Shown here piece by piece: positions 25,142 to 51,061 of a stretch of DNA of 64,000 nt (its first letter is position 1; the number at the start of each line of letters is the position of its first letter). The stretch is from Candidatus Hadarchaeales archaeon. Lineage in GTDB: Archaea > Hadarchaeota > Hadarchaeia > Hadarchaeales > Hadarchaeaceae. A program made the translations under genes and the position numbers. Location: positions 49,031 through 113,030 of the forward strand of contig JAVZGN010000002.1 of the NCBI GenBank assembly GCA_038872135.1, in the 5' to 3' direction. The notes beneath the pieces are model-generated. The model was given only the letters and a program-made list of their open reading frames with translations, was not told where the DNA came from and did no database searches.

Positions 25142-28100
25142 ATGGTGGCCACCATAGGCAAATTTAGAGATGGGGATTGGCCCCCTGCCAACTATTCTGG
25201 GACAGTTGAAGACAGGCGGGGGGCCCACTCTCCCCAATCCCGAATCACTAATGCTAAATTAAATGACGTTCCTTTATCTGAAAAAGCCCTTTCTATATCC
25301 ATGGTGATTTTAATTCTCCTCTCAACATTTTCCCCAATGCTTCATCTGCCGCTGGCTTCTGCCGGAAGTCTAGTCGATAATTCAACGGAAAACTTTGCTC
25401 TGGGAGTCCACGAGAACACAGAAAACATCGCAAATAGGATAAGGCTCAAATCTGGGTACACTTCCGGCCAGTTCACCTCTCAGATTTTCGATGCTGGCGT
25501 CTGGGCCCATTGGGAGACCATGAACTGGGTGGAGAACGAGCCATTCCTACTTATCCAAGAGAATGACGATGTGGGGGCCGAGCCGGAAACTCTGGCTGAC
25601 GGAAGTTTGAGAAGAGGAGAGATCCTAGGCGGTTCGATCACAGATGTGAGGGTGTTGGACGGAGTTTATGAAAACATTGGGGAGAACACCGAGGACAACT
25701 GTCTGAATTGGGAACACAAGATCGAGAACATTACCTTCGGCTTTGAGAACTATGTGTTGAAGATCAGGGGATACACTGGAGGGGATTATGAGAATGTAGG
25801 CATTTACATCTGGGAAAATCAAGGAGCAACATGGGGGTGGAGGTTTATCGACAATTTAACCTCCACCGAAAAGACAATCGAGTGGACAATTCCCAGAACT
25901 TCCATAGAAAATTACTTAGTCAGCGGCGCTATTTTAATCAGATATTTCGAAAACAACACCGATGCCACTCAGACTTGGGTTGTCGTCGATCTCTGCATCC
26001 TCTCTGGGGAGAACAGGATTTTTTCAGAAGTGAAGATTCAGGTTAGGGTTAGCTCAGACAACGTGGTGTGGACTGGGTGGGCTGGCCCAAGCGGAGACGA
26101 CACAACATTTTTCACTTCTTCCCCGGCAAATCTCACACCAATTCTCGACAGAAGATATATCCAGTACAGAGTTTACTTCACCAGTCCCTCTCCATCCCTC
26201 AGCGGAGGAGATGGGCCAACTTTCGGTGAGGTGGTGATAAACTACTCCCCGGTCAGCCCACCATCTCTTCAATCGCCCTCCAATGGCTCCTGGACAAACG
26301 ACAACACCCCAACATTTGATTGGAGTGATGTAGAGGATGCCACAGAATATCATCTTCTGGTGGACAACGACTCCAACTTTTCATCCCCAGAGATAAATGT
26401 CTTAGTGGCCTCAAGCCAATTCACCTCAGCCACCGAGCTGCCAGATGCAACATACTACTGGAAGGTCAGAGCAAAAGTTGGCAGCGACCTCTCAACCGCC
26501 TTCTCCGCACCCTGGACGGTCAACATCGCCACAGCTCCACCGACCCCACCATCTCTCATCTCGCCGGACAACGATGTTACCCTCTTCGTCGACCAGCCAC
26601 TCTTCAGATGGACCATCTCAACTGGCGTGGGTGCAATTACCTACTGGCTTGTCATAGACAATGATCAGGATTTCTCCTCCCCGATCTACAACAAAACTGG
26701 AATCTCGGAGAACTCTCATGTAATTGAAAACAAACTTCCGGAGAACTTCACTCCCTACTACTGGAAGGTTGCCGCAGTGGACAACATCGGAAACCTGAGC
26801 TGGTCTGAGTGGAGGAAGTTTGAACTGAAGGTTTTCCCGTCTTCAGTTGTCGGCCAGATCTCTCCCTACTGGCAAACAGCGCCTGTAAGCATCTCAGTGA
26901 CGGCAAGTGACAACGATGGAACAATTGAAAATGTCGAGCTGTGGTACAGGTACTCGGTGGACAACTCTGAGTGGGGCCCGTGGACCTTTTATGAAAACCG
27001 CTCCTCCCCGCCCTACTCCTTTACCTTCAACTTCCCAAATGGCCAGGGCCTTTATGAGTTTTACTCGATAGCCTGGGACTCTCGCGGGAACCGGGAAAAT
27101 ACCCCGCCGACCCCGGACACTGCCTGTGGATTTGACAACGCTGCCCCGCCCGCCCCAACTCTGATTCAGCCGGAAAACGATGCTGTGATCGAAACACGGA
27201 AACCAACTTTCCGGTGGACCTCTGTGACCGATCTCTCCGGCGTCACCTACAATTTGATTGTGGATAACGAAAATACTCTAGCTCCCCCACATATTTACTT
27301 TAAGACAGGAATAACGGAAAACTCTCACACAACAGAAAACTCTCTCGACATTGGGGTATATTGGTGGAAGATTGTAGCGAGGGATGCTGTGGGAAATGAA
27401 AATTCTGAGAATGTTTTTATCTTCACGCTTAGACTCTGGAACAACGTTGAGAGATGGTCTGGGGTGATAAAAACAATTTCTGGGTGGATGACAGCCGAAG
27501 TTTGGTCTGTAACAATAAATGCACCTTATGGTGTTTATGGATATCTGCTTGTAGAAGAATGGTCGGCTGTTGTTAATGCTCCACCACCTGTTTTCACAAT
27601 TGTAGAGAGCTGGACTACCACTGTTGCTAGTGAAATCTCTGAATGGAAAGTTGTGGAATCATGGACGGCCAGCATCGGGAGTGGTGGGGGATGGATGCTA
27701 GCAGAGAGTTGGATGAGTACAGTGACGGCTCTCCCGCATATTGGGTGGTCGCAGGTTGAAACCTGGAGTTTCACAGCGGTAACACTTGCAAGATGGGAAC
27801 TCGTAGAGGGATGGAATGCTTCAATCACGGCTGCTGCGTATCTCGGCTGGCCGCAGGTAGAAATGTGGTCGGTGACAGTAGATGCCCTCCCCTATGTTGA
27901 ATGGGTGCAAGCTGAGATCTGGGCGGAAACATTGACAACCTCAGCCCAATGGTTTGTATGTGAGAGCTTCGCTGCGGATATCGTCGCTAATGTGGTCTCG
28001 GGATGGACATTTGTGGAAACTTGGACCCCCACCCTAACCTCGGTAGTGTTGAGTGGATGGACACTGGACGAAAGCTGGATTGCTACGATTACCGCGGAGA

Positions 28101-31100
28101 TCCTTCAACCGGTTCTCCTCCTGCCCCTAGACGGGGAGAACACCAACAACACAAACCCAACTTTCGACTGGGAGGACAACACCCTCCCGATAGACAACTT
28201 CGAGATTCAGATAGACGATGACCAGGACTTCTCGCCCCCGCTTGTGAGATGGGAAAACACTGGGGCGACGAGCCAGTACAGCCCCGGCTTCCTTCCTGAT
28301 AACCTCTACTGGTGGAGGGTTAGGATGTGGAGGGGAGGGGTGCCGGGGGCCTGGGCTCAGAGAACTGTAAGAGTTGATACACTGCCACCAGAGAAACCAT
28401 CTCTCCTCTCCCCCCTAGATGGAGAAAACGAAAATGACAGCGCACCTAATCTCCGGTGGAGCGCCCCGCCCGAGAACTCCTTCCCGCTCACTTATTTTGT
28501 CCAAATCTCCAACTCCAAATACTTCGAGCCGGAAAACATTGCCACAAGCGCTTGGGTGATGGAAGAGAACTGGGAGGTGCCACCGGTGCTTCAGGAGAAT
28601 GTATGGTACTGGTGGAGGGTGCTTGTGAAAGACAATGCTGGAAACACAGGGGACTATTCATCTGCCAGAAAATTCAAGATAGACACCATAGCACCGCCAC
28701 CGCCCACCGTCATCTGGCCGGAGAACGACGGGTGGACGACTACCCTGCCGAACCTAGACTGGGCGCCGGTGGTTGAAAATTCCCTCCCGGTGGTCTACTT
28801 CGGAGAAATTTCACTTTTCCCAGACTTCTCCGGCAGCCCGCTCAGAACCATTTCAACGCTGGACGACAACTGGAGCGTTTCACCGGAACTCTCAGAGGGC
28901 ACATACTTCTGGAGGCTTAAGGTCAGGGACAATGCAGGGAACTTGGGAAGCTGGTCGCAGGGATTTGTCTTCAAAGTTGACAACACGCCACCAACCGCAC
29001 CACAGCCACCCTTCACGCCACCAAACAACGGCTCAGCGCCCACTGGGTTGGTTCAATTCCAGTGGGCGGCGGCCTCCGACAGTGGCTCGGGCGTTGCAAA
29101 ATACGCGATTCAGATAGATGATGAACCTAACTTCAACCCACCGCTTGTGCATGAAAATGACAACGTTGTTGGAACTGCATACTCTTGCCTACTTGAATTT
29201 CCGAAGACATATTACTGGAAGGTAAAAGCCATTGATAACGTTGGCAACGAAGGGGAGTGGTCTGAGACCCTCAGTTTCTTTGCCACCACCGTCTGGAGGT
29301 CCATTGAGAGCTGGACGGGCACAATAGCTACCTCTGCCGCCTATCAACAGGCCGAGTCTTGGGTAGCCACCATCATAACTGTTGCTCAGTGGACGCCAAT
29401 TGAATTTTGTGTAGGAACGATCGCCACCAGCGCTTCCTGGAAGTCTGTTGAGAGCTGGACGGCAACAATAACCACTACAGCCACATGGCAGTTTACTGAA
29501 ACATGGAGTGGTATAATTGCTACCGCAGCTGCTTGGCGGTTTGCTGAGACATGGGCTGGTACAATTGCTACTGCTGCTCAGTGGCAGCTAGTTGAATCAT
29601 GGCAGGTAACCATTACAACATCGGCTCAGTGGCAGGTTGTCGAGAGTTGGACTGGAACGATAACGACTTCTGCTTCATGGCAGCAGGTTGAATCGTGGAC
29701 TGCCACAATCGCTACTGCGGCCGTCTGGCAGGTTGTTGAATCCTGGATATGCACGATAAAGGTTGGTGGAGAATGGAAACTAGCAGAAAGCTGGTCCGTT
29801 AATATTGCCCCGCCTGCCGACTGGAACTACATTGAAACTTGGGCGGCAAAAATTATCGCTATCATTCCCGCTCCAATCCCAGTTTCCCCGCGTAATGGAG
29901 AGAACAAAAACACGCTTCCAACCCTCCGCTGGGACAACCTTCTCCCTGCAGACAACTTCCAGCTCCAGATAGACAACAACCCAGACTTTTCCTCACCAGA
30001 AAACGACCTTACAGTCTTTGAGAACTTCTACACACCGCCAGCCCTCCAAGACAACCTCTGGTACTGGAGAGTTAGGACATTCAGGAACAACGAGAACTCT
30101 GCTTGGTCCACTGTGTGGAAGTTCAGGATCGACAGGCTTGCTCCTGGAAAACCTGTGCTCGTTTCACCGAGCGATGGGGAGAACATCAACGACAACACTC
30201 CACTCTTCCGCTGGCAGGCCCCACCAGAAAACTCCTTCCCGCTCGTCTACACCATCCAGATATCCACAACTTCAACATTCGCTCCCGGAACATACAACGA
30301 GTTCGCCGTTACCTCTTACGAGCAGGAAGTGGGCTGGATGGTTCCGCAAGAAAACCCCTTGGCCGACAACATCTACTACTGGAGGGTAAAGGCAAGAGAC
30401 AACGCAGGCAACGAGGGAGCATTCTCTACACCCAGAAAGTTCAGGGTTGACACTGTTTCGCCAGTCATTACCCTCATCTCGCCGGCAAACGGTGAAACCG
30501 TCAGCTCGAGACCAACTCTGAGCTGGTCCCTCGTTTATGCCGAAAATACCTTGCCCGTCGTCTATAACGCTTTGATCTCTGACACCAGCACCTTCGAATT
30601 CAGCTATGAAAATGTGAAAATAACCGAGAACTCATACACCACCCAGCCACTCGACGAAAGCGTTGGAACATATTACTGGAAGGTTTGCGCATGGGACAAT
30701 GCAGGAAACTGGAGCGGATGGTCCGAGACGAGGTGGTTCACAGTCAGAACTGCGTGGAGACAGGCTGAGAGCTGGAACCTCATGCTGACTACTTCTAGCC
30801 AGTGGAATCTGGCTGAAAGCTGGTCTGCCGCTGCTACGACTTCGGCCGAGTGGAGACAAGTTGAAGCATGGGGTACAGTGCTCAGTACAACTGCTAAGTG
30901 GTCGCAGGTTGAAACATGGCAAGCAACAATGGTCGCTTCTGCTAGCTGGCAACAGGTTGATGGCTGGGCTGTAACTCTAATAACCGCCGCAAACTGGCTC
31001 CTCGCTGAAACATGGCAGGGGATTGCAACGACTACCGCAAAGTGGTTCTCAACAGAATCTTGGACAGGGGCAGTAGCCACTGTCTCTATCTGGCAAACTA

Positions 31101-34100
31101 TAGAGAACTGGTGGGCTATGGTAACTGCTCCAGTTTATCATGGATGGATTAACGCTGAAAGTTGGAGCGGATACGTATCGTCTGGGGGTGGCTGGGTCCC
31201 CGCCGAATTCTGGAGCGCAACTATCGAAGGATGGGCTTTTTGGAAGATTGTTGAAAGCTGGTCAGACACGATAAACGCTAGCGCAGGTTGGAAAACCACT
31301 GAAACATGGCAAGTTCAAATATACTCGCCAATCCCAGCACCTGTTCTCATCTTCCCGCCAGATGGCTATAACTTCAGCCCAAGTGTCGGAGAGCTTGTGC
31401 TTAAGTGGGACAACTCGCAGCCGGCAGACAACTTTGAGATTCAAATAGACAACGATTTCGACTTTTCTTCCCCAGAAGTAGACGATTTCACCTCTACCGA
31501 AAACTTTGTGGTCCCGTCCCTGCCTGACAACCTCTACTGGTGGAGAGTAAGGACCTTCAGAACTGGCGAGAATTCTCAGTGGTCCGAGGTTTGGAGGTTC
31601 CGCATCGATAACATTCCCCCAGCTGTTCCTTCCCTCCTCGCTCCTTCAGAAGGGGAGAACATCAACGATAACACTCCGCTTCTTAGGTGGCAGGCCCCGC
31701 CCGAGAACTCCTTCCCGCTCAGATATAGGGTTCAGGTTGCTACCGACAAATTCTTCACAAACATTGTGAGGGAGGCTCTCTGGACGGTCACGGCGGAGAA
31801 CTGGGAGATCCCGGCCGAAAACTCGCTGCCAGACAACATGTACTACTGGAGAGTCGCGGCAAAAGATAACGCGGGCAACTACAGCATGTTCTCCTCCTAT
31901 AGAAGCTTCAGGGTCGACACCCTCAAGCCCGCGGTTCCATCTCTCACTTCTCCACCCCATGGAGCTTGGATCGCCTTCCCATCTCTCACGTGGAGCAAAG
32001 TAACCGATATCTCTCTCCCGCTTCTCTATAACCTTCAGATAGCCTATGACAACGACTTCTCCCATCTCGTTGTGAACGTGGAGCTTCTGGATAACTCCTG
32101 GAGCGGGCCACTGGATGAGGGGTTATACTGGTGGAAAGTTCAGGCGAAAGATGGAGCCGGCAACCTGAGCGGATGGTCGGAAAACCGGAAGTTCATCGTT
32201 GACAACGCCCCGCCGACAAAGCCGGTTCTCTCTACACCTGAAAACAGCACAGATGTGAATATAGGGACAATAACATTTGGATGGCAGGCTTCTGATCCTG
32301 GAGCTGGAATTTCAAAATACTGGATTCAGATAGATAATGAACCTGACTTTGATAACACCTTTTTCGTGCACGAAAATCAGATGGTCACAGAAAATACCTA
32401 TCAGTACATCATCTCAGTGAGCGGAAGATATTATTGGAGGGTAAGGGCAATAGACGGGGCTGGAAACATCGGTGAATGGTCGGACAACTGGAACTTCTTC
32501 GTATATGGCTGGAGCTCCATTGAAAGCTGGATGGCAATGATCAGTGGGCCGAGCCAGTGGAGAAATGTTGAGAGCTGGAATGCAACTATCAAAACTAGGG
32601 CTTATATCTGGGAAAAGCTGGAGAACTGGAGCGCCAGCATTCAGGCCCCATTTTTGGCAGGGTGGAGTTTTGTGGAAAGCTGGCAGGTAGAATTCATTTC
32701 CGTTACAGTATCTTGGAGAGGTGTTGAAAGCTGGAGAGCGATTATAACTGGAAGAGTGATTGCTCCGGTACTTCTCTCCCCCTCGAATGGCCTGAACACA
32801 TCTCAGAACCCACTCACATTCAGGTGGGAGAATGTCCATCTCGCTGACAACTACAGGATCCAGATAGATAACAAGTCCCCGGTGGTTGCTTACGAAAATG
32901 ACAATGTGGGGGCCGAGCCGGAAACCCTGGTTGACGGAAGCTTGAGAAGAGGAGAGATCCTAGGCGGCTCGATCACAGATGTAATGGTTCTGGACGGAGT
33001 TTATGAAAATATTGGAGAGAACACCGAGGACAACTGTCTGAATTGGGAACACAAGATCGAGAACATTACCTCCGGCTTTGAGAACTATGTGTTGAAAATT
33101 AAGGGATACACTGAAGGAGACAATGAAAACATCTTTGTGTACATCTGGGAGAATGACTTTGGGACTTGGAGATGGCGAGAAATTGGAACCATCACCTCAA
33201 ATGAAACAACAATCGTCTGGGAAATGAAATACACAAACATCGAGAAATATTTGATGGATGGCTCGATTTATGTCAGATATCTTGAAAACACTCCAGACTT
33301 GGTGCAAACGGTTCTTCACATAGATCTCTGCGTGCTGATGGAAAATCTCGAGAATCTGACTCCACCATTTTTAGTTGACGCAACGAGCACTGACAACTTC
33401 TACACCTACACATTCCCCGAGAATGGGAGATACTGGTGGAGAGTAATGGCAATGGTCCAGGGGATTGTCGGAGATTGGTCAAACATCTGGACGGTTCGAG
33501 CCGATACTGTTGCTCCACAGCCGCCAATCCTGATATCCCCAATCCACCATGAAAATGTTAATGATACTACTCCACTTCTCCGCTGGCAGGCCCCGCCCGA
33601 GAATTCTCTTCCCGTGAAATTCTTTGTTCAGGTAGCAACCGATCCAACATTCAATACTATCATTAGAGAAAACTGGGTTGTTGGAGAGCAATGGGAGGTG
33701 TATCCGCCACTACAGGAAAATGTTTACTACTGGATGGTGCTTGCGGTTGACAATGCAGGAAATTCCAGTCCTCCCTCTCCAACCTGGGAGTTTAGGGTTG
33801 ACATAACATCTCCCGCCACGCCTGAACCCAAAGCCCCCCGTGATGGAGAAAATCTGAATGACAACACCCCAGAACTAGTGTGGACTAGTGTTTGGGATGA
33901 TTCTCGGCCAGTAGTCTATCGCATTCAAGTAGCTTATGATGAGGCATTCCAGTTTATGGTTCCTGGATGCGATGTTTATGTCTATGAAAACACTTGGACA
34001 ACTCCCGAGCTTCCCAGCGAGAGAGTGTATCGATGGAGAGTCAAGGCCATAGACAATGCTGGAAATGAAAGTGGATGGTCTCCAACTCAAAGATTCAGGT

Positions 34101-36727
34101 TCGACTGCAGCCCGCCACTCCCCCCATCTCTTATCTCCCCAATGCCTGGCGAAAATGTTGGTAGCTCGACTCCAACCTTCTCTTGGGCGGCCCCATTCGA
34201 AAACTCAACCCCGATAAAATACTATCTTTCCATCAGCGATAATGAAGACTTCCCATACGAGAACGAAAACTCTGGATGGATCTCCTCAACTTCTTGGATA
34301 GTACAATCTCCTCTCTCAGACGGCATCTGGTACTGGAGGGTGAAGGCAAGAGACAACGCCGGCAACGAGGGAGCATTCTCTACACCCAGAAAGTTCAGGG
34401 TTGATACGCTTCCACCCGAGAATGTTTCTCTGCTGGAGCCGGAAAATGGCACGACGGTAGGTGATAACACTCCACTGCTGAAGTGGTCTAGTGCGGTAGA
34501 CAACTCCCTTCCGGTAAAGTATGTTGTGGTTGTAGCTCGCGACCCCGCCTTCGCAGATAATGTCATCTCCTCTCCTTGGCTCGACAATGAAAATTGGGAA
34601 ATCCCACTGGGGCTCTTGGACAACACATACTATTGGAAGGTGAGGGCGAGAGATAACGCAGGAAACATCTTTGAAACGCCATCTTGGTGGTTCATCGTTG
34701 AAAATGCCTCGCCCTTCATGCCACAGCTCGTCAGGCCTGCAAACGGAGCATGGGAAAACGACAACACCCCGACCTTCAAATGGGAAAACGCATGGGACAT
34801 TTCACAACCAGTGGAATATTTTGTGTGGCTCTCCACCGACAACCTCTTTGAAAACATTGTACTCACCAGTGGCTGGGTGGAGAACGAGAACTGGACGGTT
34901 CCGGCGGAAAATTCCCTCTCGGATAATGTAAAATATTACTGGAGGGTTCAGGCAAAAGACAACACCGGAAAGCTCAGCGAGAATTCTGAGACATGGTGGT
35001 TCATCGTCGACGTGGTGGTTCCGCCAAGGATAAACCTCTGGTCGCCGCCTAACGACGCCGTCTTCGAGAAGCTCACGATCACCTTCACTTGGGAAAGTGT
35101 GACCGATAATTCTGGAGTAACCTATCACATAGAAATAGATAATGAGCCCAGCTTCTCTAGCCCACTTGTGGATAGTAGATATACCACCAACGCCGTCCTG
35201 CCAAGTTACACCTTCCAAAAAACAGGGTGGTACTACTGGAGGGTAAGGACGATAGACGGAGCTGGAAATATCGGTGAATGGTCGGACAACTGGGTGATTT
35301 TGATTGGTAGATGGACTTTTCTAGAGCGCTGGAACGAGATAACAATCATTAGCCAGCCCACGGCGTGGAAATGGATAGAATCATGGGGATTAACTATAAA
35401 GGCTCCAAGCGGCTGGACCTTGGTCGAGAGCTGGCAGGCCACAGCCGTCGGAGCAATCCGATGGAGAGTTGCCGAAAGCTGGTCACTGAGCATTAGGACT
35501 AGGCCCTACTACTGGACTAAGGTTGAGGCATGGGAGAATGTGGCAACATTGAGAGGATACCCGATTCCAGTTTGGAGATTTGCTGAAAACTGGGGAGGGA
35601 TATCAATCATTTCTCTCCCACGTGAATTTAGATTTGTTGAAACTTTCAATGCTCAGATAAGGGCTCCGGCGGAAATAATTGACTTCCTCACCGCCATTGA
35701 GCGGCCACCGCCAAAGTGGGAGGAAATAGAGAAGATGCATGCGACCTTTAGGGCAAAAGAGCCGCTGCCAGGAATCCCTGTGACCGTCGGAAGGGTGATG
35801 CCCGGAACTACTTCAACGGCAGATTTTTCCGCCTTCGACATCCCAGTGATCAAGATTGAAATAACTCTTAAGCCAGACGCCCCTGCCACAGAGATCGCTC
35901 CGATCGTCCTCTCAGCCAAGGCCGTTGACAACATCCCAGGAATATCTGGTCCTCCGGGCGAAACATACAAATTCTTGGAATTTGGTGTGGATGGGATACC
36001 ACCGGAATACATTCAGAACTTCAGGGTGCGGTTCAGGGTTGAAAAGAGGTGGCTTCTCGGGATGGATGAGAAAACTCTCGAGGTGGTGAGGCTGAGCGGC
36101 AATTGGGTGCGAGTACCTTTTGAACTAATTAGCTCAACTGAAGATTACAACATATATGAAATGGCTGGCGATGTCTATTCGACCTTTGCGATAATAGCGC
36201 AGAAAAAGACGCTACCACTTCAAGCCCCGCCGGTCGTCTTGATTCCAACTGGAGAAGCCCCATCCCCAAGTCCCATTGGATTATTTGTGCTTCTCGGCAT
36301 AGGCGGGATAGCAGTGGGGCTGATGTTCTATCGTTCTGTCGCGAAAATAAGAATTGGCGGACTTGAGAAAGAGCTTGAGAAGCTCCAAAAGGCGCCTCCG
36401 ACAAAAAAGGTGGCGGTGAGAGGTGTAAGGATAACGCTTCCCAAAGTGGAAAAAATGGAGATTAAGAGGATTGCCAGAGCGATTTGGGGTCCACCGCCAA
36501 TCCCGAGAGTTCCTCCGCCTGAAAGACGCCTGGCCCCGCCAGAAATCGCGGCTGTGGAAACTCTCGAGAAGTTCATCGCTGAAAGGAGAAAGAAGGCGCC
36601 GAAAATAGCGGTTGAAAAAATTGAAGAGGTGAGAAAAAAGCTGAGCAAGGAGGAGATTGAGGTTTTCAAGACCCTAGAAAAATTTGTTGGAAAGAGAAGG
36701 AAAGCCATGAAAAGAGGAGGTGGATGA
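25142..36727 (+). CDS. Giant membrane-anchored surface protein: signal peptide, about 21 FnIII/Ig-like modules, five Trp-rich repeat blocks, PGF-pre-PGF-like domain, TM helix, basic cytoplasmic tail; true start may be nearer 25301
   Basis: Uninterrupted 3861-aa ORF; hydrophobic MVILILLSTFSPMLHLPLASA; recurring P.L.sP...P.f.W...Y.WrV.A.DnaGN modules; FRVEKRWL...YSTFAI; IGLFVLLGIGGIAVGLMFY. Confidence 0.9.
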   Translation: MVATIGKFRDGDWPPANYSGTVEDRRGAHSPQSRITNAKLNDVPLSEKALSISMVILILLSTFSPMLHLPLASAGSLVDNSTENFALGVHENTENIANRIRLKSGYTSGQFTSQIFDAGVWAHWETMNWVENEPFLLIQENDDVGAEPETLADGSLRRGEILGGSITDVRVLDGVYENIGENTEDNCLNWEHKIENITFGFENYVLKIRGYTGGDYENVGIYIWENQGATWGWRFIDNLTSTEKTIEWTIPRTSIENYLVSGAILIRYFENNTDATQTWVVVDLCILSGENRIFSEVKIQVRVSSDNVVWTGWAGPSGDDTTFFTSSPANLTPILDRRYIQYRVYFTSPSPSLSGGDGPTFGEVVINYSPVSPPSLQSPSNGSWTNDNTPTFDWSDVEDATEYHLLVDNDSNFSSPEINVLVASSQFTSATELPDATYYWKVRAKVGSDLSTAFSAPWTVNIATAPPTPPSLISPDNDVTLFVDQPLFRWTISTGVGAITYWLVIDNDQDFSSPIYNKTGISENSHVIENKLPENFTPYYWKVAAVDNIGNLSWSEWRKFELKVFPSSVVGQISPYWQTAPVSISVTASDNDGTIENVELWYRYSVDNSEWGPWTFYENRSSPPYSFTFNFPNGQGLYEFYSIAWDSRGNRENTPPTPDTACGFDNAAPPAPTLIQPENDAVIETRKPTFRWTSVTDLSGVTYNLIVDNENTLAPPHIYFKTGITENSHTTENSLDIGVYWWKIVARDAVGNENSENVFIFTLRLWNNVERWSGVIKTISGWMTAEVWSVTINAPYGVYGYLLVEEWSAVVNAPPPVFTIVESWTTTVASEISEWKVVESWTASIGSGGGWMLAESWMSTVTALPHIGWSQVETWSFTAVTLARWELVEGWNASITAAAYLGWPQVEMWSVTVDALPYVEWVQAEIWAETLTTSAQWFVCESFAADIVANVVSGWTFVETWTPTLTSVVLSGWTLDESWIATITAEILQPVLLLPLDGENTNNTNPTFDWEDNTLPIDNFEIQIDDDQDFSPPLVRWENTGATSQYSPGFLPDNLYWWRVRMWRGGVPGAWAQRTVRVDTLPPEKPSLLSPLDGENENDSAPNLRWSAPPENSFPLTYFVQISNSKYFEPENIATSAWVMEENWEVPPVLQENVWYWWRVLVKDNAGNTGDYSSARKFKIDTIAPPPPTVIWPENDGWTTTLPNLDWAPVVENSLPVVYFGEISLFPDFSGSPLRTISTLDDNWSVSPELSEGTYFWRLKVRDNAGNLGSWSQGFVFKVDNTPPTAPQPPFTPPNNGSAPTGLVQFQWAAASDSGSGVAKYAIQIDDEPNFNPPLVHENDNVVGTAYSCLLEFPKTYYWKVKAIDNVGNEGEWSETLSFFATTVWRSIESWTGTIATSAAYQQAESWVATIITVAQWTPIEFCVGTIATSASWKSVESWTATITTTATWQFTETWSGIIATAAAWRFAETWAGTIATAAQWQLVESWQVTITTSAQWQVVESWTGTITTSASWQQVESWTATIATAAVWQVVESWICTIKVGGEWKLAESWSVNIAPPADWNYIETWAAKIIAIIPAPIPVSPRNGENKNTLPTLRWDNLLPADNFQLQIDNNPDFSSPENDLTVFENFYTPPALQDNLWYWRVRTFRNNENSAWSTVWKFRIDRLAPGKPVLVSPSDGENINDNTPLFRWQAPPENSFPLVYTIQISTTSTFAPGTYNEFAVTSYEQEVGWMVPQENPLADNIYYWRVKARDNAGNEGAFSTPRKFRVDTVSPVITLISPANGETVSSRPTLSWSLVYAENTLPVVYNALISDTSTFEFSYENVKITENSYTTQPLDESVGTYYWKVCAWDNAGNWSGWSETRWFTVRTAWRQAESWNLMLTTSSQWNLAESWSAAATTSAEWRQVEAWGTVLSTTAKWSQVETWQATMVASASWQQVDGWAVTLITAANWLLAETWQGIATTTAKWFSTESWTGAVATVSIWQTIENWWAMVTAPVYHGWINAESWSGYVSSGGGWVPAEFWSATIEGWAFWKIVESWSDTINASAGWKTTETWQVQIYSPIPAPVLIFPPDGYNFSPSVGELVLKWDNSQPADNFEIQIDNDFDFSSPEVDDFTSTENFVVPSLPDNLYWWRVRTFRTGENSQWSEVWRFRIDNIPPAVPSLLAPSEGENINDNTPLLRWQAPPENSFPLRYRVQVATDKFFTNIVREALWTVTAENWEIPAENSLPDNMYYWRVAAKDNAGNYSMFSSYRSFRVDTLKPAVPSLTSPPHGAWIAFPSLTWSKVTDISLPLLYNLQIAYDNDFSHLVVNVELLDNSWSGPLDEGLYWWKVQAKDGAGNLSGWSENRKFIVDNAPPTKPVLSTPENSTDVNIGTITFGWQASDPGAGISKYWIQIDNEPDFDNTFFVHENQMVTENTYQYIISVSGRYYWRVRAIDGAGNIGEWSDNWNFFVYGWSSIESWMAMISGPSQWRNVESWNATIKTRAYIWEKLENWSASIQAPFLAGWSFVESWQVEFISVTVSWRGVESWRAIITGRVIAPVLLSPSNGLNTSQNPLTFRWENVHLADNYRIQIDNKSPVVAYENDNVGAEPETLVDGSLRRGEILGGSITDVMVLDGVYENIGENTEDNCLNWEHKIENITSGFENYVLKIKGYTEGDNENIFVYIWENDFGTWRWREIGTITSNETTIVWEMKYTNIEKYLMDGSIYVRYLENTPDLVQTVLHIDLCVLMENLENLTPPFLVDATSTDNFYTYTFPENGRYWWRVMAMVQGIVGDWSNIWTVRADTVAPQPPILISPIHHENVNDTTPLLRWQAPPENSLPVKFFVQVATDPTFNTIIRENWVVGEQWEVYPPLQENVYYWMVLAVDNAGNSSPPSPTWEFRVDITSPATPEPKAPRDGENLNDNTPELVWTSVWDDSRPVVYRIQVAYDEAFQFMVPGCDVYVYENTWTTPELPSERVYRWRVKAIDNAGNESGWSPTQRFRFDCSPPLPPSLISPMPGENVGSSTPTFSWAAPFENSTPIKYYLSISDNEDFPYENENSGWISSTSWIVQSPLSDGIWYWRVKARDNAGNEGAFSTPRKFRVDTLPPENVSLLEPENGTTVGDNTPLLKWSSAVDNSLPVKYVVVVARDPAFADNVISSPWLDNENWEIPLGLLDNTYYWKVRARDNAGNIFETPSWWFIVENASPFMPQLVRPANGAWENDNTPTFKWENAWDISQPVEYFVWLSTDNLFENIVLTSGWVENENWTVPAENSLSDNVKYYWRVQAKDNTGKLSENSETWWFIVDVVVPPRINLWSPPNDAVFEKLTITFTWESVTDNSGVTYHIEIDNEPSFSSPLVDSRYTTNAVLPSYTFQKTGWYYWRVRTIDGAGNIGEWSDNWVILIGRWTFLERWNEITIISQPTAWKWIESWGLTIKAPSGWTLVESWQATAVGAIRWRVAESWSLSIRTRPYYWTKVEAWENVATLRGYPIPVWRFAENWGGISIISLPREFRFVETFNAQIRAPAEIIDFLTAIERPPPKWEEIEKMHATFRAKEPLPGIPVTVGRVMPGTTSTADFSAFDIPVIKIEITLKPDAPATEIAPIVLSAKAVDNIPGISGPPGETYKFLEFGVDGIPPEYIQNFRVRFRVEKRWLLGMDEKTLEVVRLSGNWVRVPFELISSTEDYNIYEMAGDVYSTFAIIAQKKTLPLQAPPVVLIPTGEAPSPSPIGLFVLLGIGGIAVGLMFYRSVAKIRIGGLEKELEKLQKAPPTKKVAVRGVRITLPKVEKMEIKRIARAIWGPPPIPRVPPPERRLAPPEIAAVETLEKFIAERRKKAPKIAVEKIEEVRKKLSKEEIEVFKTLEKFVGKRRKAMKRGGG
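25559..25819 (+). repeat. 261-bp intragenic direct repeat, copy 1 (copy 2 at 32894-33154)
   Basis: Both encode END.VGAEPETL.DGSLRRGEILGGSITDV.VLDGVYENIGENTEDNCLNWEHKIENIT; long identical DNA stretches. Confidence 0.92.
27437..28100 (+). repeat. Trp-rich repeat block 1 (about 13 units of W-x3-E-x-W-x-x-T-I)
   Basis: e.g. WKVVESWTASI, WMLAESWMSTV, WSQVETWSFTA. Confidence 0.85.
29294..29865 (+). repeat. Trp-rich repeat block 2 (12 units, 16-aa period)
   Basis: WQLVESWQVTITTSAQ WQVVESWTGTITTSAS WQQVESWTATIATAAV. Confidence 0.9.
30755..31330 (+). repeat. Trp-rich repeat block 3 (12 units)
   Basis: WRQAESWNLMLTTSSQ WNLAESWSAAATTSAE WRQVEAWGTVLSTTAK. Confidence 0.88.
32510..32760 (+). repeat. Trp-rich repeat block 4 (5 units)
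   Basis: WSSIESW, WRNVESW, WEKLENW, WSFVESW, WRGVESW. Confidence 0.85.
32894..33154 (+). repeat. 261-bp intragenic direct repeat, copy 2
   Basis: Colinear and ungapped with 25559-25819. Confidence 0.92.
35312..35670 (+). repeat. Trp-rich repeat block 5 (about 7 units)
   Basis: WTFLERW, WKWIESW, WTLVESW, WRVAESW, WTKVEAW, WRFAENW, FRFVETF. Confidence 0.82.
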
Positions 36728-37370
36728 GGTGGAGCCAGAATTTCGCCTGACGAGGGCGGGAAAAATTAAATGGAAGCTGAAGAAAAACTGGAAAGTTATC
36801 GCGGCAATTATTCTATCTATATCAATAGCGGTGGGAGTTTATCTCTCAACCCTCCAGCCATCCAAGATTTCCAGAAGAGCTAAGATTACTGCTCCCTATG
36901 TTGAATTTGAAAGTAGAAGGGGGTTCTTTGCCGTGCGTAAATACCAGGAGTCTGGAATCGAAAACATTTACATCGTTAAATTTCCCAATTTTGACCCGAC
37001 CAGGGATGCGATGTCTCAGCTGGAAAATGTTGATGCAATCATTTCGAGTAGCGGGCAAACTGTGGATGTTTCGGACAATGCCCTTTTTGCTATAGTTGTG
37101 GCCGTTAGAGCAAAGGCTCCAGACAACATCGCATATGTGGTCAAAGAGAATATGTGGGTCTGGCTCGGGGCTAGTGGAGCATTCACCATCCCGAACTCTC
37201 TGGCTCCAGACTGGAAAGAATATGTTTTTGAGAGTTCTGGATATGGAACTGCGAATGGTTACATGAGAGTAAATGTGATCTGGGACAACGATGGCGAGGG
37301 ATATATACTGTACGCAGGGCAACATCTCTTCATAGACAACATCGTCTTGAAATTTTTCAGTCCAAGATAG
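36720..37370 (+). CDS. Uncharacterised single-pass membrane protein, paralog of 50465-51061
   Basis: Basic N-terminus, TM VIAAIILSISIAVGVYL, beta-rich ectodomain; start overlaps the giant gene's stop. Confidence 0.82.
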   Translation: MDEVEPEFRLTRAGKIKWKLKKNWKVIAAIILSISIAVGVYLSTLQPSKISRRAKITAPYVEFESRRGFFAVRKYQESGIENIYIVKFPNFDPTRDAMSQLENVDAIISSSGQTVDVSDNALFAIVVAVRAKAPDNIAYVVKENMWVWLGASGAFTIPNSLAPDWKEYVFESSGYGTANGYMRVNVIWDNDGEGYILYAGQHLFIDNIVLKFFSPR

Positions 37371-39533: not shown

Positions 39534-39610
39534 CGGATAACCATTCCTTTTAGAGAAATAAAGTTGGAGGTTCCCAAATGGTTTAATGTTTACAAACGAT
39601 GGAAGTTTGT

Positions 39611-40588
39611 ATGGAATATGATTTTGAAGAAGAGCGAGTGAAAAAATTTCTGAGAGAGAATAGTGCGAAAAAAGCAGCGGTGCAGTTGCCATCTGGGCTG
39701 AAAAGTTACTGGAGAGAGATAGCAGAGACATTTCATTCTGCTGGCGTTGAGCCGGTTTTGATGGATAGCTGCTACGGGGGGTGTGATATCGCAGATGCCG
39801 CGGCAAAACAGATGGGGTGTGATGTTCTTGTCCACTATGGTCACGCGGATATCGGACTAAAGGCGTCTCTCCCAACGCTGTACATAGAGGCGAGAGTGGT
39901 TGGATGCGATATGGGTGGTGTAAGGAGCCTGCTGGAAAAAATGAATGGAGAGAAAGTGGGACTTCTGACCACAGTTCAATTCATCGATTACCTCGACACC
40001 GTGAAAAAGATCGGCCGAGAATGTGGTGTTGAATTGCTTATCGGCGCCCCTGGATCCAGAACAAAATATCCTGGGCAGATCCTCGGATGCGACTTCAGCT
40101 CCGCTAGGAACTTGAAGGAAGAAGTGGGGGTCTACCTTTACATGGGGACCGGGGAGTTCCACCCACTTGGCGTCTCTATTGCAACAGGGAAAAAAGTCGT
40201 GGCGTTTGATCCAATATCTTCAGCTACAAAAGAAATCACCGGAGAAGAGTTTCTGAGAAAAAGAAAAGCGACGATCACCATGGCTGCGATGGGGGAAAAG
40301 TTTGGTGTTGTCACCAGCACAAAACCTGGCCAATGGAGAATCGCAACAGCCAGAAGGGCTGTGGAGCAGCTGAGGAAAAGCGGAAAGCTGGCGGAGCTCC
40401 TTGTGGTGGATGAAATCACCCCCGAGACCGTGGGAGATTATCGCTTCGACTGCCTCGTCTGCGCCGCATGCCCCAGAATTCCGATAGACGACCAAGACAG
40501 GTTTGAGGTGCCCATCATCACTCCCTGGGAAATGAAGGTAATGCTGGGACAGGCACAATTTTCACCCTACCAAATGGATGAGCTTTAG
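39611..40588 (+). CDS. dph2: Diphthamide biosynthesis enzyme Dph2
   Basis: QLPSGLK, CYGGCD, HYGH, GQILGC, ACPRIPIDD. Confidence 0.93.
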   Translation: MEYDFEEERVKKFLRENSAKKAAVQLPSGLKSYWREIAETFHSAGVEPVLMDSCYGGCDIADAAAKQMGCDVLVHYGHADIGLKASLPTLYIEARVVGCDMGGVRSLLEKMNGEKVGLLTTVQFIDYLDTVKKIGRECGVELLIGAPGSRTKYPGQILGCDFSSARNLKEEVGVYLYMGTGEFHPLGVSIATGKKVVAFDPISSATKEITGEEFLRKRKATITMAAMGEKFGVVTSTKPGQWRIATARRAVEQLRKSGKLAELLVVDEITPETVGDYRFDCLVCAACPRIPIDDQDRFEVPIITPWEMKVMLGQAQFSPYQMDEL

Positions 40589-43649: not shown

Positions 43650-43660
43650 GTGATTTTTCC

Positions 43661-44756: not shown

Positions 44757-44800
44757 TTCTGAAAGTTAAAAGCCGACCAGTAGATGATAATCGGGAGAAA

Positions 44801-46467: not shown

Positions 46468-47751
46468 GTGGAAAAACAAGAAATAATTCCAAGGGATATT
46501 TTAACAAAATTCGAGAAATTGCTAGAAAGACGAGAGGCTCTTGCGATAAAAGGTCCCCGACAATCGGGGAAGACAACTCTTTTGAAAATCTTGGCGAGAA
46601 GACTTGAGAACGCAGGCAAAGTCGTTTTTCTGAATTTCGAGGACCCCGATGTGCTCGAAGCCTTTGAGAGGGACCCCAAGGGTTATGTGCGGAGCTTCAT
46701 GCTCGGTCCCGAAAGGCATTACTTCTTGATGGACGAGTTCCACTACATCAGTGAACCTGGAAAGAAACTCAAGTTACTCTACGACACCTTCGAGAATGCG
46801 AAGTTCATCGTCACCGGTAGTTCCTCCCTAGAACTCGGTGGGGCGATGGCGAAATTTTTGGTGGGTCGAGTGTTTTTCTTTGAGTTGCTTCCCTTCAGCT
46901 TCCACGAGTTCCTAGTGGCAAAAAACGAGAGATTGGCTAAGATTTATGAGAAAAAGAACGAAGCCATCAAAGCCTTCATGCTGGGAGAAGAAGTAGAACT
47001 GGAAGAAGATATCTTCGTGAAAGAGCTTGAGCCCCTTTTCCTTGAGTACCTCACTTACGGCGGCTATCCGGCTGTGGTCTTGGCTAACGATGCGGAGACA
47101 AAGCGAATGATCCTGAAAGGCATATACGATACATACATTTCCAAAGATGTGATTGAGTTTTTGAAATTCACCGACGCGTTCAAGTACAGAGATACTATCA
47201 GGATCCTAGCAGCGTCGGTTGGAGGATTGCTAAACTACCAAGCGGTGGGCTCGGCGGTCCAAAGCTACTTCAAGGAGCTGAAGCGGATCCTCTCGATTCT
47301 CTCCGAAACGTACGTGATAATCTTGCTCCGACCATTCTCAAGGAACCCGAGAACCGAGCTAAGGAAAAGCCCAAAGGTCTATTTCTTTGACTTGGGGCTC
47401 AGGAACTATGTGCTAAACAATTTTAACCCACTCGACAGGAGGGCTGATGCCGGAGCGATGGTTGAAAACTTCGTGCTGCTGGAGCTAATGCGTGCCTTCC
47501 CAGCTGAGTCCTTAAATTACTGGCGGACGATAGCAAAAGCCGAGGTAGACTTCGTGCTGAGGGTCGGGGAAAAATTGATACCGATAGAGGCCAAATATCA
47601 AAGTTTCGCGGAACCAAAAATCTCAAGAAGCCTCCGGAGCTTCATCCACACTTACAGCCCAGAGCGCGCTTTGGTTGTGACCCGCGATAGGTGGGCGAGG
47701 AGTGAAATTGATGGAACAAAAGTGCTTTTCGCTCCCGCCTGTTACATTTAA
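46468..47751 (+). CDS. AAA+ ATPase with C-terminal DUF4143 nuclease-like domain (COG1373-like)
   Basis: GPRQSGKTT, DEFH, TGSSS, GGYP, PKVYFFDLGL, ENFV, EVDFV...PIEAK. Confidence 0.9.
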   Translation: MEKQEIIPRDILTKFEKLLERREALAIKGPRQSGKTTLLKILARRLENAGKVVFLNFEDPDVLEAFERDPKGYVRSFMLGPERHYFLMDEFHYISEPGKKLKLLYDTFENAKFIVTGSSSLELGGAMAKFLVGRVFFFELLPFSFHEFLVAKNERLAKIYEKKNEAIKAFMLGEEVELEEDIFVKELEPLFLEYLTYGGYPAVVLANDAETKRMILKGIYDTYISKDVIEFLKFTDAFKYRDTIRILAASVGGLLNYQAVGSAVQSYFKELKRILSILSETYVIILLRPFSRNPRTELRKSPKVYFFDLGLRNYVLNNFNPLDRRADAGAMVENFVLLELMRAFPAESLNYWRTIAKAEVDFVLRVGEKLIPIEAKYQSFAEPKISRSLRSFIHTYSPERALVVTRDRWARSEIDGTKVLFAPACYI

Positions 47752-50462
47752 CGATGCACAAGCTTGGATTCTTCCTCATGACCTAATCTTAGGCCGCTTG
47801 AGATTTCGGGGAGACTCTTCTTCCCGAGCCTGAGGTACCTCCACACAACAGCTAAAACAACGATTGAAAGGACTATGAAGGCGGCCACAATGAGGTAGGG
47901 GGACGAAACACCGGCTAGAGGAACTGTCGGCATCGTAGAAATTGTGATGGTGTGAACGGAGAAGTAAGGGATTGAGACGATAACTTGGATCCCTCTGCCT
48001 CCCTTCACCAAATAATATTCTGGTAAACCATTGTCATTTGTCGGGTCGAGGGCATCTACATAATCATCTGCAAGGGCTATTTCAACGTCATTGAGGAGGA
48101 CCCTAGCAGTCCATCCCGCCGGGAGCACTCGATTTTCAACATTTATCACAACTGTTGTGCCATTTTCCATCGAGCTGATGTTCTCCACGACGAGCTCTAC
48201 TTTTTCACCGAATACTACCGTGCCGAGTGTTATCCTGAGGTCCTTGTGCTCGTATCCCCTTGAAATTCCCGGTTTTTCAGCTTCAATTCTGATAGCCACG
48301 ACCGCTCCGAGATTTCCCCTTAGGAAGGCATTTTCCAGCTCCCTCAATTTCTCCTCTTCAACTGGAACTCCGATATCAGCAGCCTGCTCGATAAAGTTGT
48401 TTTCCATGACTTCCATTTTCTGCTCTACCAGCTGGCTCACCACCGTAGCAGTGGAAATAGCAGTGGTAGCAGAATAGATGTTGTCGCCGGCAAAAAATGC
48501 GGTTATAGTGGCAGTTGTCTGATTTTCCACAATTGGGGCTGTGAAGATGACCGTGGCCTGCCCAGAGTTGTCAGTACTGCTGGTGAAGTAGCTGAGGCTT
48601 CCGAGGGTTGTTGACCAGGAGATGATTTTGCTGGAAAGTGGAAGCCCTCGCGAGGTGAGCTTGACGATCAAAGTCTCGGTCTTTCCAGATCCTATTACGA
48701 AACTTGCCGGGGAAATCGTGAGGGTTGTGGGAGCCGGGGTTATCGTCACCGTCAGACTCGCATTGCTCGAATAATAGCTCGCATCCCCGGCGAAAGAAGC
48801 CGTGACCACAACATTTTCGGATGCCGCGACACCTTGGGCAATGTAAATAACTGAGGCATTGCCATTCCCATCGGTTGTAGTGGCGGTCGCCGAGAGAACA
48901 CCTTTTGCAACACTCCAGGAAATGGTCTTTCCTGAAAGGACCAACCCATTCGCGTCTTTGAGGGTAGCCGTCAGCATCACCGAATCGCCGGGTAAAATGC
49001 TCAGGCTAGAAGGAGCTATCGTTAAAAAGGTGGAGATTCTTGAGGGGGGAGGGGAGGGCGTTGTAATTCTCGCGCTCCGGCTTTCGACCATCTGAAACCA
49101 AGTTGTTGTCGTAACAGTTGCACTCCTGCTCTCAGCCAGAGTATACCACAAAGCTGTTGTGATTGTAGCAGCCCAATTTTCGGCCAGCTGAAACCATGCT
49201 GGTTCTTTTGGCCCTATTTGCACGGATGGCATAGGATCTATCGACTTTCGAAGAATTTTCCAGACATCACGCCTGTAATTCCCATCGTAACCTCCCATCA
49301 CCCAGACTGCATCTTTGAAAACAACTGATGAGTGTTCATATCTCGCGCTCCATGTGACTCCGGTCAATTTCGTCCAGCTTGAGCCATTTTCTGAATACCA
49401 AATGTCGGAAAGATATTCCGCCCACAACTCCCCATTGCCACCAATAACCCACATCCGGTTGTCAAAAACAACTGAAGTGTGATATCTCCTGGGAGTCCAG
49501 CCGCCATTTCCAGTCGCTTGGAACCAGTTTTCACCATCTGAAGAGTACCAGACATCATTCTTGAAAGCACCGCTTGAGTATCCTCCAATCACCCACATCC
49601 TGTTGTTGAAGACCACCGAGGAATGGCTGTGGCGCGGGCTCCAAGGGGCTGCTGAAGTAACCTGACACCAGTTAACACCATCACTAGAATACCAGACATC
49701 ATTCTTGTAGTTGCCATCATAACCTCCGATTACCCAGATTTTACCGGCAAAAACAATCGAAGTGTGGCCCCATCTCGCCGACCATCCTGGAGAAGATGTT
49801 GCGAGTATCCAGTTTTCGCCATTCTCCGAATACCAGACCTCAGAGTCTGGGCCACCGATTACCCACATCCGATTGTTGAAAACCACCGATGTGTGATTTC
49901 TTCGCGAAGTCCATCCCGCATTGTCAACAACTAGCATCCAGTTAACTCCATCGGCTGAACACCAGACATCATTTTCTGCGTTTTCAGCCCCTCCTCCAAT
50001 CACCCAGATTTTATTATCAAATACGAGGGAAGTGTGGGCATACCTTGGAGACCAGCCGGCATCTGCCGTCGCCTGAACATCAGCATACGGAAGAATAGTG
50101 TTCTCCCAGCTGCTCACATTTGTGGCCGTGGGATTTCCATAGTAAACGTAAATCGTGTTGTCGGAATTTTCAGGCCTCCGCACCCAAATAGTCGCGTTGT
50201 CTGGGGTGTAGTTCTCGACCCAGAAATTGAGAAGGCCGAAATTATCGTTCTCCAGAAACCTTAGATCTCTGAAGTCTGGTTGCATCTCAGCGTAGAAGGG
50301 GAGAATTATCTTCAGATGAATATTCTCGGGATGAGGGGAAATTGTGATGGCCCTCCTCCTCGTCCAACTCTCATCCCACCATCCGGCGGCTGCTGCGTAG
50401 GGAGAACTTAGAAGCATCGACAAGAGAAAAATCACTAAAAACGCCCGCGAAAACCGTTGCAT
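47748..50462 (-). CDS. Membrane-anchored surface protein: DUF2341-like N-domain, Kelch beta-propeller, 3 Trp repeats, 2 Ig-like domains, C-terminal TM
   Basis: Signal MQRFSRAFLVIFLLSMLLSSPYAAA; WWDESWTRRRAITI..DLRF..IYVYYGNP; repeated R..HTSVVF...WVIGG...DVWYS; YLIVAAFIVLSIVVLAVVW. Confidence 0.88.
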   Translation of the reverse strand: MQRFSRAFLVIFLLSMLLSSPYAAAAGWWDESWTRRRAITISPHPENIHLKIILPFYAEMQPDFRDLRFLENDNFGLLNFWVENYTPDNATIWVRRPENSDNTIYVYYGNPTATNVSSWENTILPYADVQATADAGWSPRYAHTSLVFDNKIWVIGGGAENAENDVWCSADGVNWMLVVDNAGWTSRRNHTSVVFNNRMWVIGGPDSEVWYSENGENWILATSSPGWSARWGHTSIVFAGKIWVIGGYDGNYKNDVWYSSDGVNWCQVTSAAPWSPRHSHSSVVFNNRMWVIGGYSSGAFKNDVWYSSDGENWFQATGNGGWTPRRYHTSVVFDNRMWVIGGNGELWAEYLSDIWYSENGSSWTKLTGVTWSARYEHSSVVFKDAVWVMGGYDGNYRRDVWKILRKSIDPMPSVQIGPKEPAWFQLAENWAATITTALWYTLAESRSATVTTTTWFQMVESRSARITTPSPPPSRISTFLTIAPSSLSILPGDSVMLTATLKDANGLVLSGKTISWSVAKGVLSATATTTDGNGNASVIYIAQGVAASENVVVTASFAGDASYYSSNASLTVTITPAPTTLTISPASFVIGSGKTETLIVKLTSRGLPLSSKIISWSTTLGSLSYFTSSTDNSGQATVIFTAPIVENQTTATITAFFAGDNIYSATTAISTATVVSQLVEQKMEVMENNFIEQAADIGVPVEEEKLRELENAFLRGNLGAVVAIRIEAEKPGISRGYEHKDLRITLGTVVFGEKVELVVENISSMENGTTVVINVENRVLPAGWTARVLLNDVEIALADDYVDALDPTNDNGLPEYYLVKGGRGIQVIVSIPYFSVHTITISTMPTVPLAGVSSPYLIVAAFIVLSIVVLAVVWRYLRLGKKSLPEISSGLRLGHEEESKLVHR

Positions 50463-50464
50463 GA

Positions 50465-51061
50465 TTAGCCCCATAGCCATAGACTTACAGTAAATCCTGC
50501 ATAAGAGCCAGCGGGCAACTTCCATCCCGTTCCATTATTGTCGAACACTGCATTTATCCTCACATATCCGTTGGCCGTCCCATACCCGGAGTTTTCAAAA
50601 ACATATTCAATCAAGTCGGTTGAGTTATCATGCCAGCTGAAGCCTGATGTCCATTGCAACTCAACCTTTACATTTTCTTTTGAAGCGTAGGCTGGTGGAT
50701 CTCCATCCAAATTTATTGCATCTGCCCTCACAGCCGGCACCACATCGAAGGGGGTCTCATAGGGGATATCAACAGTCTGACCGGGCCCAGTTATTACATC
50801 TAGACAATAGTTTGTATTTCCCGCATATTGACCAAGCCAGCTATTTTTATCATATCCAGAACCATGCTTCATTATATAGATGTTTTCAAACCCATCGGTG
50901 TTTTCTGAGATAAAAGAGTATCCACTTCCGCTCCAGACGGCAACGAGTCTCCACCGAGGTCCCTGAACAATCGATTCTTTGGCAGGGAGATATGAAGTGA
51001 TAAGTAAAACAGCGATTACCAAAGTAGCTAAAATTCCTGCAGCCTGCCATCTTCCAATCAT
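50465..51061 (-). CDS. Uncharacterised exported or single-pass protein, paralog of 36720-37370
   Basis: N-terminal hydrophobic helix; shares ENIYI, GQTVD, AVRA, KEN, EYVFE.SGYGTANGY.R.N...DN.G.G with the paralog. Confidence 0.82.
   Translation of the reverse strand: MIGRWQAAGILATLVIAVLLITSYLPAKESIVQGPRWRLVAVWSGSGYSFISENTDGFENIYIMKHGSGYDKNSWLGQYAGNTNYCLDVITGPGQTVDIPYETPFDVVPAVRADAINLDGDPPAYASKENVKVELQWTSGFSWHDNSTDLIEYVFENSGYGTANGYVRINAVFDNNGTGWKLPAGSYAGFTVSLWLWG

Follow-up and report, generated by a model that had tools for sequence, protein, structure and literature searches.

The stretch of DNA analysed here (the window: 64,000 nucleotides, G000:C2:49031-113030) lies in a Hadarchaeales genome (G000; 1.08 Mb, 34 contigs, 91% complete) and encodes surface and membrane proteins in which Asn is, far more often than composition predicts, immediately preceded by Asp or Glu (a pair written [DE]N below). 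The richest carrier is a giant membrane-anchored surface protein with hydrophobic segments at residues 43-61 and 3712-3730 (Table 1): 163 of its 257 Asn follow an acidic residue, where 30.6 are expected. These pairs lie in the ectodomain (163 of 254 Asn, 162 of them without Pro as the next residue), and the Glu-rich cytoplasmic tail of 131 residues is free of Asn. The protein is highly repetitive, its immunoglobulin-like (Ig-like) repeats having the motif G-E-N-x-N-D in common. It also contains an internal duplicate, a very EN-rich domain of 158 residues without a Pfam match, whose two copies (residues 130-287 and 2575-2732) share 68% identity.

The other carriers follow the same pattern on a smaller scale. 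A Kelch surface protein with hydrophobic segments at both termini has 28 of 53 Asn after Asp or Glu (4.9 expected), as do 7 of 12 (1.3 expected) and 6 of 13 (1.2 expected) in two small single-pass membrane proteins, named here by their first coordinates, 36720 and 50465. Neither of the latter belongs to a Pfam family; they are similar in sequence and apparently paralogous, and each gene overlaps the end or start of a large surface-protein gene, so placed that small and large gene together look like a repeated two-gene module. The neighbours of the carriers in the window are, by Pfam, ordinary cytoplasmic enzymes. One of the window's cytoplasmic proteins, pyruvate phosphate dikinase (PPDK), has 2 of 27 Asn in the pair (4.2 expected), and the 46 window proteins classed as cytoplasmic have, when pooled, 36 [DE]N against 38.6 expected.

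An earlier note on this DNA had counted such pairs by hand and suggested that the lineage may modify Asn in a [DE]-N context, through an altered oligosaccharyltransferase sequon or some other modification, or may use the pairs for Ca2+ binding or stability. Its counts of 18 of 22 for the first part of the giant protein (residues 75-320; 3.5 expected), 6 of 13 for the 50465 protein and 2 of 27 for PPDK were the same on recounting, and the bias it saw in the Kelch protein is borne out by the figures above. It gave 7 of 11, with no N-x-S/T site, for the 36720 ectodomain; the whole protein likewise has no N-x-S/T, and the twelfth Asn stands before the membrane segment.

Table 1. Features discussed in the text; positions are those of the window unless stated otherwise.
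Feature	Length (amino acids)	Position	Strand	Remarks
Giant membrane-anchored surface protein	3861	25142..36727	+	Pfam Ig-like domains (Rha78A-like, Big_13)
Duplicated domain of the giant protein, copy 1	158	25529-26002		no Pfam match
Duplicated domain of the giant protein, copy 2	158	32864-33337		no Pfam match
Small single-pass membrane protein (36720)	216	36720..37370	+	start overlaps stop of giant gene
Kelch / DUF2341 / Big_1 surface protein	925	47748..50525	-	Pfam
Small single-pass membrane protein (50465)	198	50465..51061	-	overlaps start of Kelch gene
PPDK, cytoplasmic comparison protein		51279..53939	+	Pfam
AglB	745	G000:C2:28645-30879		18 kb before the window
GT2 glycosyltransferase		20728..21432	-	PF00535 at 20947-21402 (G000:C2:69977-70432), 101.6 bits
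Nre, longest open reading frame		38223-39875	-	Nre_N domain first appears at residue 157
Diphthamide synthase		39599-40588	+	

The [DE]N bias of exported proteins is real and reaches well beyond the window. Genes were called across the genome with our own caller (longest open reading frames, codon log-odds scoring, greedy non-overlapping choice), which found about 1090 genes, a coding density of 88%, and the expected number of pairs was computed for each protein from its own composition. Proteins were assigned to compartments by a crude hydropathy rule rather than a trained signal-peptide predictor: those with no hydrophobic segment were taken as cytoplasmic, those with one N-terminal segment as exported, and those with several as multi-segment. 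The cytoplasmic class (794 proteins) contained 743 [DE]N against 741 expected, an observed-to-expected ratio (O/E) of 1.00. The corresponding figures were 681 against 200 (O/E 3.41) for the exported class, from which the giant protein had been left out (108 proteins), and 302 against 85 (O/E 3.54) for the multi-segment class (119 proteins). Measured against 300 within-protein shuffles, exported proteins have a z of 36.7 and cytoplasmic proteins one of 0.1. The restriction to exported proteins claimed in the earlier note thus extends genome-wide, and the enrichment survives the composition correction it had called for. In the cytoplasmic class, Asn-Pro is over-represented (O/E 1.60) and Asp-Asn under-represented (0.65).

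The signal is confined to one position. At -1 to Asn, Asp is enriched 2.9-fold and Glu 3.7-fold in exported proteins, against 0.6- and 1.2-fold in cytoplasmic ones, while all other positions from -5 to +5 in exported proteins are near 1 (at +2, Ser 1.0 and Thr 1.1). Of the 400 dipeptides only DN and EN deviate strongly, with exported-to-cytoplasmic ratios of 4.2 and 3.3 (z 15.9 and 31.0, respectively) against 1.68 for the next dipeptide. The median O/E per protein is 3.07 over the 52 exported proteins for which one or more sites are expected, compared with 0.87 over 283 cytoplasmic proteins. The pair accounts for about 39% of the Asn of exported proteins: Asn of [DE]N make up 1.97% of exported residues and other Asn 2.75%, against 0.34% and 2.22% in the cytoplasm. 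The Asn surplus of exported proteins is almost entirely [DE]N Asn.

A bias of this kind could be artefactual, stemming from composition, from repeats within proteins, from domains shared by paralogues, from gene calling or from a motif at the DNA level, given that the giant protein is so repetitive and that both the gene caller and the compartment rule are crude. We consider this very improbable. The reverse dipeptide, N[DE], has an O/E of 0.80 in exported proteins and an acidic residue at -2 an O/E of 1.00; acid is thus enriched neither at +1 nor at -2, and local clustering of acidic residues and Asn, or composition generally, is therefore not the cause. Repeats and paralogues are ruled out by the 69 exported proteins that have no paralogue among the membrane proteins, which retain 248 pairs against 81.7 expected (O/E 3.03), and by the per-protein median. 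A DNA-level motif is ruled out likewise, as the enrichment is confined to the coding frame: in-frame GANAAY occurs 17.6 times per kb in exported genes against 3.4 in cytoplasmic genes, its frequency in the two other frames and in the reverse complement is equal in the two gene classes, and exported genes use all eight [DE]N codon pairs. Furthermore, the shuffles separate the two compartments, and the same pipeline yields values of about 1 in four outgroup archaea.

The bias also follows the membrane within single proteins. In 37 bitopic proteins, each having one N-terminal and one C-terminal membrane segment and pooled from seven Hadarchaeales genomes, the ectodomains contain 810 [DE]N against 204.5 expected, compared with 1 against 1.9 in the N-terminal tails and 3 against 2.3 in the C-terminal tails. 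A further property of the extracytoplasmic pairs is that they avoid Pro. In the exported proteins of five Hadarchaeales genomes, the residue after [DE]N is Pro at 14 of 1098 sites (1.3%) and that after other Asn at 117 of 1888 (6.2%; Fisher p 7e-12), whereas in cytoplasmic proteins Pro follows 94 of 1261 [DE]N and 630 of 8334 other Asn, about 7.5% in both cases (p 0.95). Strict exclusion of Pro at +1 is a known acceptor rule of oligosaccharyltransferases, as a passage of PMC8342417 has it, and the Pro depletion after exported [DE]N, as read from these counts, matches that rule.

The classical sequon, by contrast, leaves no trace of enrichment in this genome: N-x-S/T has an O/E of 0.96 in exported and 0.96 in cytoplasmic proteins, a non-enrichment that leaves use of such sites possible. 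Nor do exported [DE]N show a preference for Ser or Thr at +2 (Ser 0.8-fold, Thr 1.2-fold). A rule of the PglB type (D/E-X-N-X-S/T) is ruled out in exported proteins by the O/E of 1.00 for an acid at -2 and by Ser/Thr at +2 being at chance. The earlier note had taken N-x-S/T enrichment to be the norm for archaeal surface proteins. With the same pipeline this held for the exported proteins of two of four outgroups, from the Bathyarchaeia (1.77) and the Methanosarcinales (2.07), and did not hold for the other two (0.95 and 1.10).

Alternatively, [DE]N may have a non-covalent role, in binding Ca2+ or other cations or in adapting the solubility or stability of surface proteins to the hot subsurface habitats of the lineage. 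Pairs of an acid and an amide are able to ligate cations, most of the carriers consist of beta-rich surface domains, and sequence statistics are compatible with Asn that are never modified. Such a role would not readily account for the strict order of the pair ([DE]N 3.4 against N[DE] 0.8), for its spread over unrelated folds, seen in the paralogue-free set and in the per-protein median, for the share of exported Asn that it takes up, or for the exclusion of Pro at +1. Selection for stability against deamidation would favour Asn-Pro. A genome of the same phylum (G031, described below) is also without the bias. The Ca2+ or stability alternative of the earlier note is weakened by these observations, and we regard it as unlikely while leaving it a small share of the probability. 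Taken together, the statistics argue that the [DE]N motif is positively selected in the extracytoplasmic proteins of Hadarchaeales.

In the genome, at 91% completeness, a single gene of the STT3 family was found, an AglB encoded on the same contig as the window. Its fold is that of an oligosaccharyltransferase catalytic subunit, multi-pass GT-C with a C-terminal globular domain. The protein matches Pfam STT3 (PF02516; CAZy GT66) with 49.6 bits against a cut-off of 24.5, over profile positions 72-258 only, and reaches the cut-off of no curated NCBIfam model. A profile-profile alignment of 85 of its 91 homologues (those of at least 700 residues) with about 80 canonical AglBs gave a probability of 99.9% (E 6e-34) over 489 columns at 18% identity. 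The AlphaFold (AF2) model (predicted local distance difference test, pLDDT, 89.0; predicted template modelling score, pTM, 0.84) retrieved with Foldseek only STT3A/B, yeast Stt3, PglB or A. fulgidus AglB at PDB ranks 1-19 (E 1e-17 to 5e-13), the next match being DPY19 at 7e-8. The acidic catalytic motifs are kept: TTSDSG (D39) as the first DXD motif, in EL1, GAFDRE (D153, E155) as the second (DXD/DxE), and YASE (E300) with the Glu of TIXE/SVSE in EL5. An alignment of 34 homologues has D39, D153 and E300 without exception. In many Hadarchaeales AglB is about 1100 residues long through a C-terminal fusion to Ig-like domains (PF25788, PF19077), the same domains as in the giant surface protein; the AglB of this genome is unfused.

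The acceptor-reading part of AglB is another matter. The earlier note had proposed inspecting the WWDYG motif, and in this protein QWSFG stands in its place, in a residue-for-residue HMMER alignment with human STT3A and STT3B. Across the homologue alignment the first Trp is replaced by Gln or Glu and the Asp by Ser, the second Trp (W469) is invariant, and of WWDYG only this Trp and the Gly are retained. According to a passage of bioRxiv 10.64898/2026.09.03.749169, the human STT3A residues that bind the +2 hydroxyl are W525 and D527, with W526 stacking against the +1 residue. By this alignment, the residues that read the +2 hydroxyl are exactly those replaced in Hadarchaeales AglB. The profile alignment further suggests that the region of the DGGK / DNXTZNX[T/S] and DK/MI motifs has been rebuilt: D486 and G487 are invariant (DG.E) and are followed by an insertion of 41 residues with invariant G.W(EN) and PPD, after which INGRRxDVQ, with invariant GRR.D, aligns to the second half of DNXTZNX[T/S]. 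Neither DxxK nor MxxI is recognisable in that alignment.

The variant AglB is a trait of the whole order. A homologue was found in 29 of 31 sampled relatives, and all aligned ones that cover the motif have xW[SA]xGH. A collection of 5.8 billion proteins yielded the 91 homologues, none with WWD and 88 with xW[SA]xGH, whose source names are, with single exceptions, Hadarchaeales, Hadesarchaea or Hadarchaeum; one homologue of the PWSYGH type (P0092) comes from an MSBL1 single-cell genome. A scan of 185,579 species genomes, biased to the variant because one of its two patterns was the variant motif itself, returned 54 loci, all but four of them labelled Hadarchaeota or a synonym, and one exception, labelled 'Hodarchaeaceae', is G005, a genome assigned to the family of the window. 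The 94% complete genome G013, from this family too, gave no AglB match by protein query or Pfam family; AglB was found in six of the eight searched genomes of its genus, and its absence from G013 may reflect a gap in the assembly or a real loss of the gene.

Among the genomes sampled, the [DE]N bias is confined to the same order. It was present in all seven Hadarchaeales, namely the source genome and six relatives from four families of which about 200 kb each was sampled, with exported O/E of 1.78-4.38 against cytoplasmic values of 0.80-1.05. With exported and bitopic proteins counted together, exported and cytoplasmic O/E were, respectively, 3.66 and 1.00 in the source genome, 3.13 and 1.05 in a genome of the same genus (G003), 2.04 and 0.95 (G010) and 1.78 and 0.80 (G005) in two of the same family, and 4.38 and 0.91 (G019), 2.97 and 0.94 (G028) and 2.29 and 1.03 (G060) in three others of the order. 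G031, the single genome of the same phylum from outside the order, has a canonical AglB with AWWDYGYWI and an exported [DE]N O/E of 0.99 (391 kb sample). The four outgroups with WWD[YF]G, G031 included, gave values of 0.88-1.39 for the exported class alone, among them 1.39 in the Bathyarchaeia genome (22 observed, 16 expected), 0.92 in Nitrososphaera and 0.88 in the Methanosarcinales genome, whose motif is WWDFGH. The comparison with other taxa called for in the earlier note thus found the bias absent from four outgroup archaea.

A motif that is directional, Asn-specific, extracytoplasmic, Pro-excluding and positively added looks, for these reasons, like an N-glycosylation sequon, and since the bias is confined to an order whose only oligosaccharyltransferase has lost its Ser/Thr pocket, AglB is the obvious candidate enzyme. 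We therefore suggest, with a probability of roughly 0.6, that [DE]-N-{P}, with any residue other than Pro at +1, is the N-glycosylation sequon of Hadarchaeales AglB. A fuller version, which we hold slightly less firmly and still somewhat above even odds, is that Hadarchaeales gave up N-X-S/T for a minimal sequon, [DE]-N-{P}, that would be read from the N-terminal side by an AglB with a rebuilt Ser/Thr pocket. AglB would act on the Asn of [DE]N, and the acidic side chain at -1 would do the anchoring that otherwise falls to the +2 hydroxyl. Its carboxylate may be read by R534 and R535, two family-invariant residues of INGRRxDVQ, or by R154 of the D-R-E motif. Of the possibilities raised in the earlier note, the altered sequon is the one that the sequence checks support, and the exclusion of Pro at +1 is an additional hallmark that it had not predicted.

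Several observations weigh against this proposal. Its support consists of sequence statistics, and the co-distribution of motif and variant AglB is in effect one evolutionary event, which cannot separate AglB from other traits of the order. The signals in G010 and G005 are weaker than in the other relatives, both being small samples. In multi-pass proteins (133 proteins, crude positive-inside test) the contrast is modest, 2.12 in outside against 1.34 in inside loops; this is the expected direction though weak, the bitopic control being much cleaner. The neighbours of AglB are HisRS and one GT4 gene, with no obvious glycosylation cluster. Finally, no AglH-type initiating transferase (PF00953, AglH / GlcNAc-1-P transferase) was found in the source genome, a result that at 91% completeness does not show absence; the family is present in 12 of 14 control genomes.

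Part of this evidence would fit a different enzyme. Another extracytoplasmic Asn-directed modification or processing enzyme may target [DE]-N, with the divergence of AglB unrelated to it, and AglB might then have kept to N-x-S/T, work with no fixed sequon or attach glycans to another kind of target. Motif and AglB are linked only by their co-distribution within one clade, AglB is very divergent, as its 18% identity to canonical AglBs and the NCBIfam result indicate, and PF00953 was not found. Set against this, the exclusion of Pro at +1 is a known signature of oligosaccharyltransferases, the change in AglB affects precisely the residues that read the sequon and spares the catalytic ones, which are invariant, and exported N-x-S/T stands at 0.96 here against 1.77 and 2.07 in two outgroups treated with the same pipeline. 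We judge a separate enzyme improbable, at about the level of the non-covalent role.

If [DE]-N-{P} is glycosylated by AglB, the donor would be a glycan linked to lipid phosphate and assembled by GT2 and GT4 enzymes. Since no PF00953 was found, this donor may perhaps be begun by a GT2 enzyme on a lipid monophosphate. One of the four GT2 genes of the genome lies in the window (Table 1), and a lipid-phosphate sugar synthase for the glycan donor is a possible role for its product. Elsewhere in the window, about 280 nucleotides are shared between the longest open reading frame of the Nre gene and the diphthamide-synthase gene; the true start of Nre is probably further downstream, in keeping with the position of its Nre_N domain.

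Asn-X-Ser/Thr is treated as common to the oligosaccharyltransferases of each of life's three domains in a passage of PMC8342417. Full-text literature, with subscription journals outside coverage, gave no report of a [DE]-N sequon or of glycosylation in Hadarchaeota. If our proposal is right, Hadarchaeales would be, to our knowledge, the first oligosaccharyltransferase lineage with an acceptor rule that does not use the +2 hydroxyl, and a sequon rule would be visible as a proteome-wide signature. It would further mean that acceptor recognition is open to rewiring around an unchanged catalytic core, and it would provide a natural experiment on what the +2 hydroxyl contributes to catalysis. All glycosite predictions for Hadarchaeota based on N-x-S/T would then be wrong, and a two-residue glycosylation tag would become available for engineering. 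The sequon claim is directly testable with peptides and one recombinant enzyme, or by re-searching hot-spring and subsurface metaproteomes.

Compared with canonical AglB/STT3, the Hadarchaeales enzyme belongs to the same superfamily and fold, keeps both DXD-type motifs and the catalytic Glu, and would share an extracytoplasmic Asn target with Pro excluded at +1. It differs in having [QE]WS[FY]GH in place of WWDYG and an apparently rebuilt DGGK / DNXTZNX[T/S] and DK/MI region with its insertion, and its putative acceptor differs in the strong preference for Asp or Glu at -1 without any preference for Ser or Thr at +2. The S-layer glycoprotein of Halobacterium salinarum, in which glycosylation of Asn-2 is reported to tolerate loss of the +2 Ser, is an archaeal precedent for N-glycosylation independent of the +2 hydroxyl; it concerns one site in one protein, and we know of no -1 acid rule or proteome-wide signature in that case. 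Trypanosoma brucei STT3A prefers acidic acceptor contexts. It is a single-subunit oligosaccharyltransferase whose acceptor choice depends on peptide context, in the account given in part of PMC5724017. Acidity there merely modulates N-x-S/T, whereas here it occupies one defined position and N-x-S/T is not enriched. Campylobacter PglB (extended sequon D/E-X-N-X-S/T) is an oligosaccharyltransferase that requires a negatively charged residue N-terminal to Asn, as stated in a passage of PMC4894442. In PglB the acid stands at -2 and is added to a required Ser or Thr at +2, whereas here it stands at -1 and both -2 and +2 are at chance. PglB retains the WWD motif, and this best-known sequon variation only adds to Asn-X-Ser/Thr, the sequon that Hadarchaeales may have given up.

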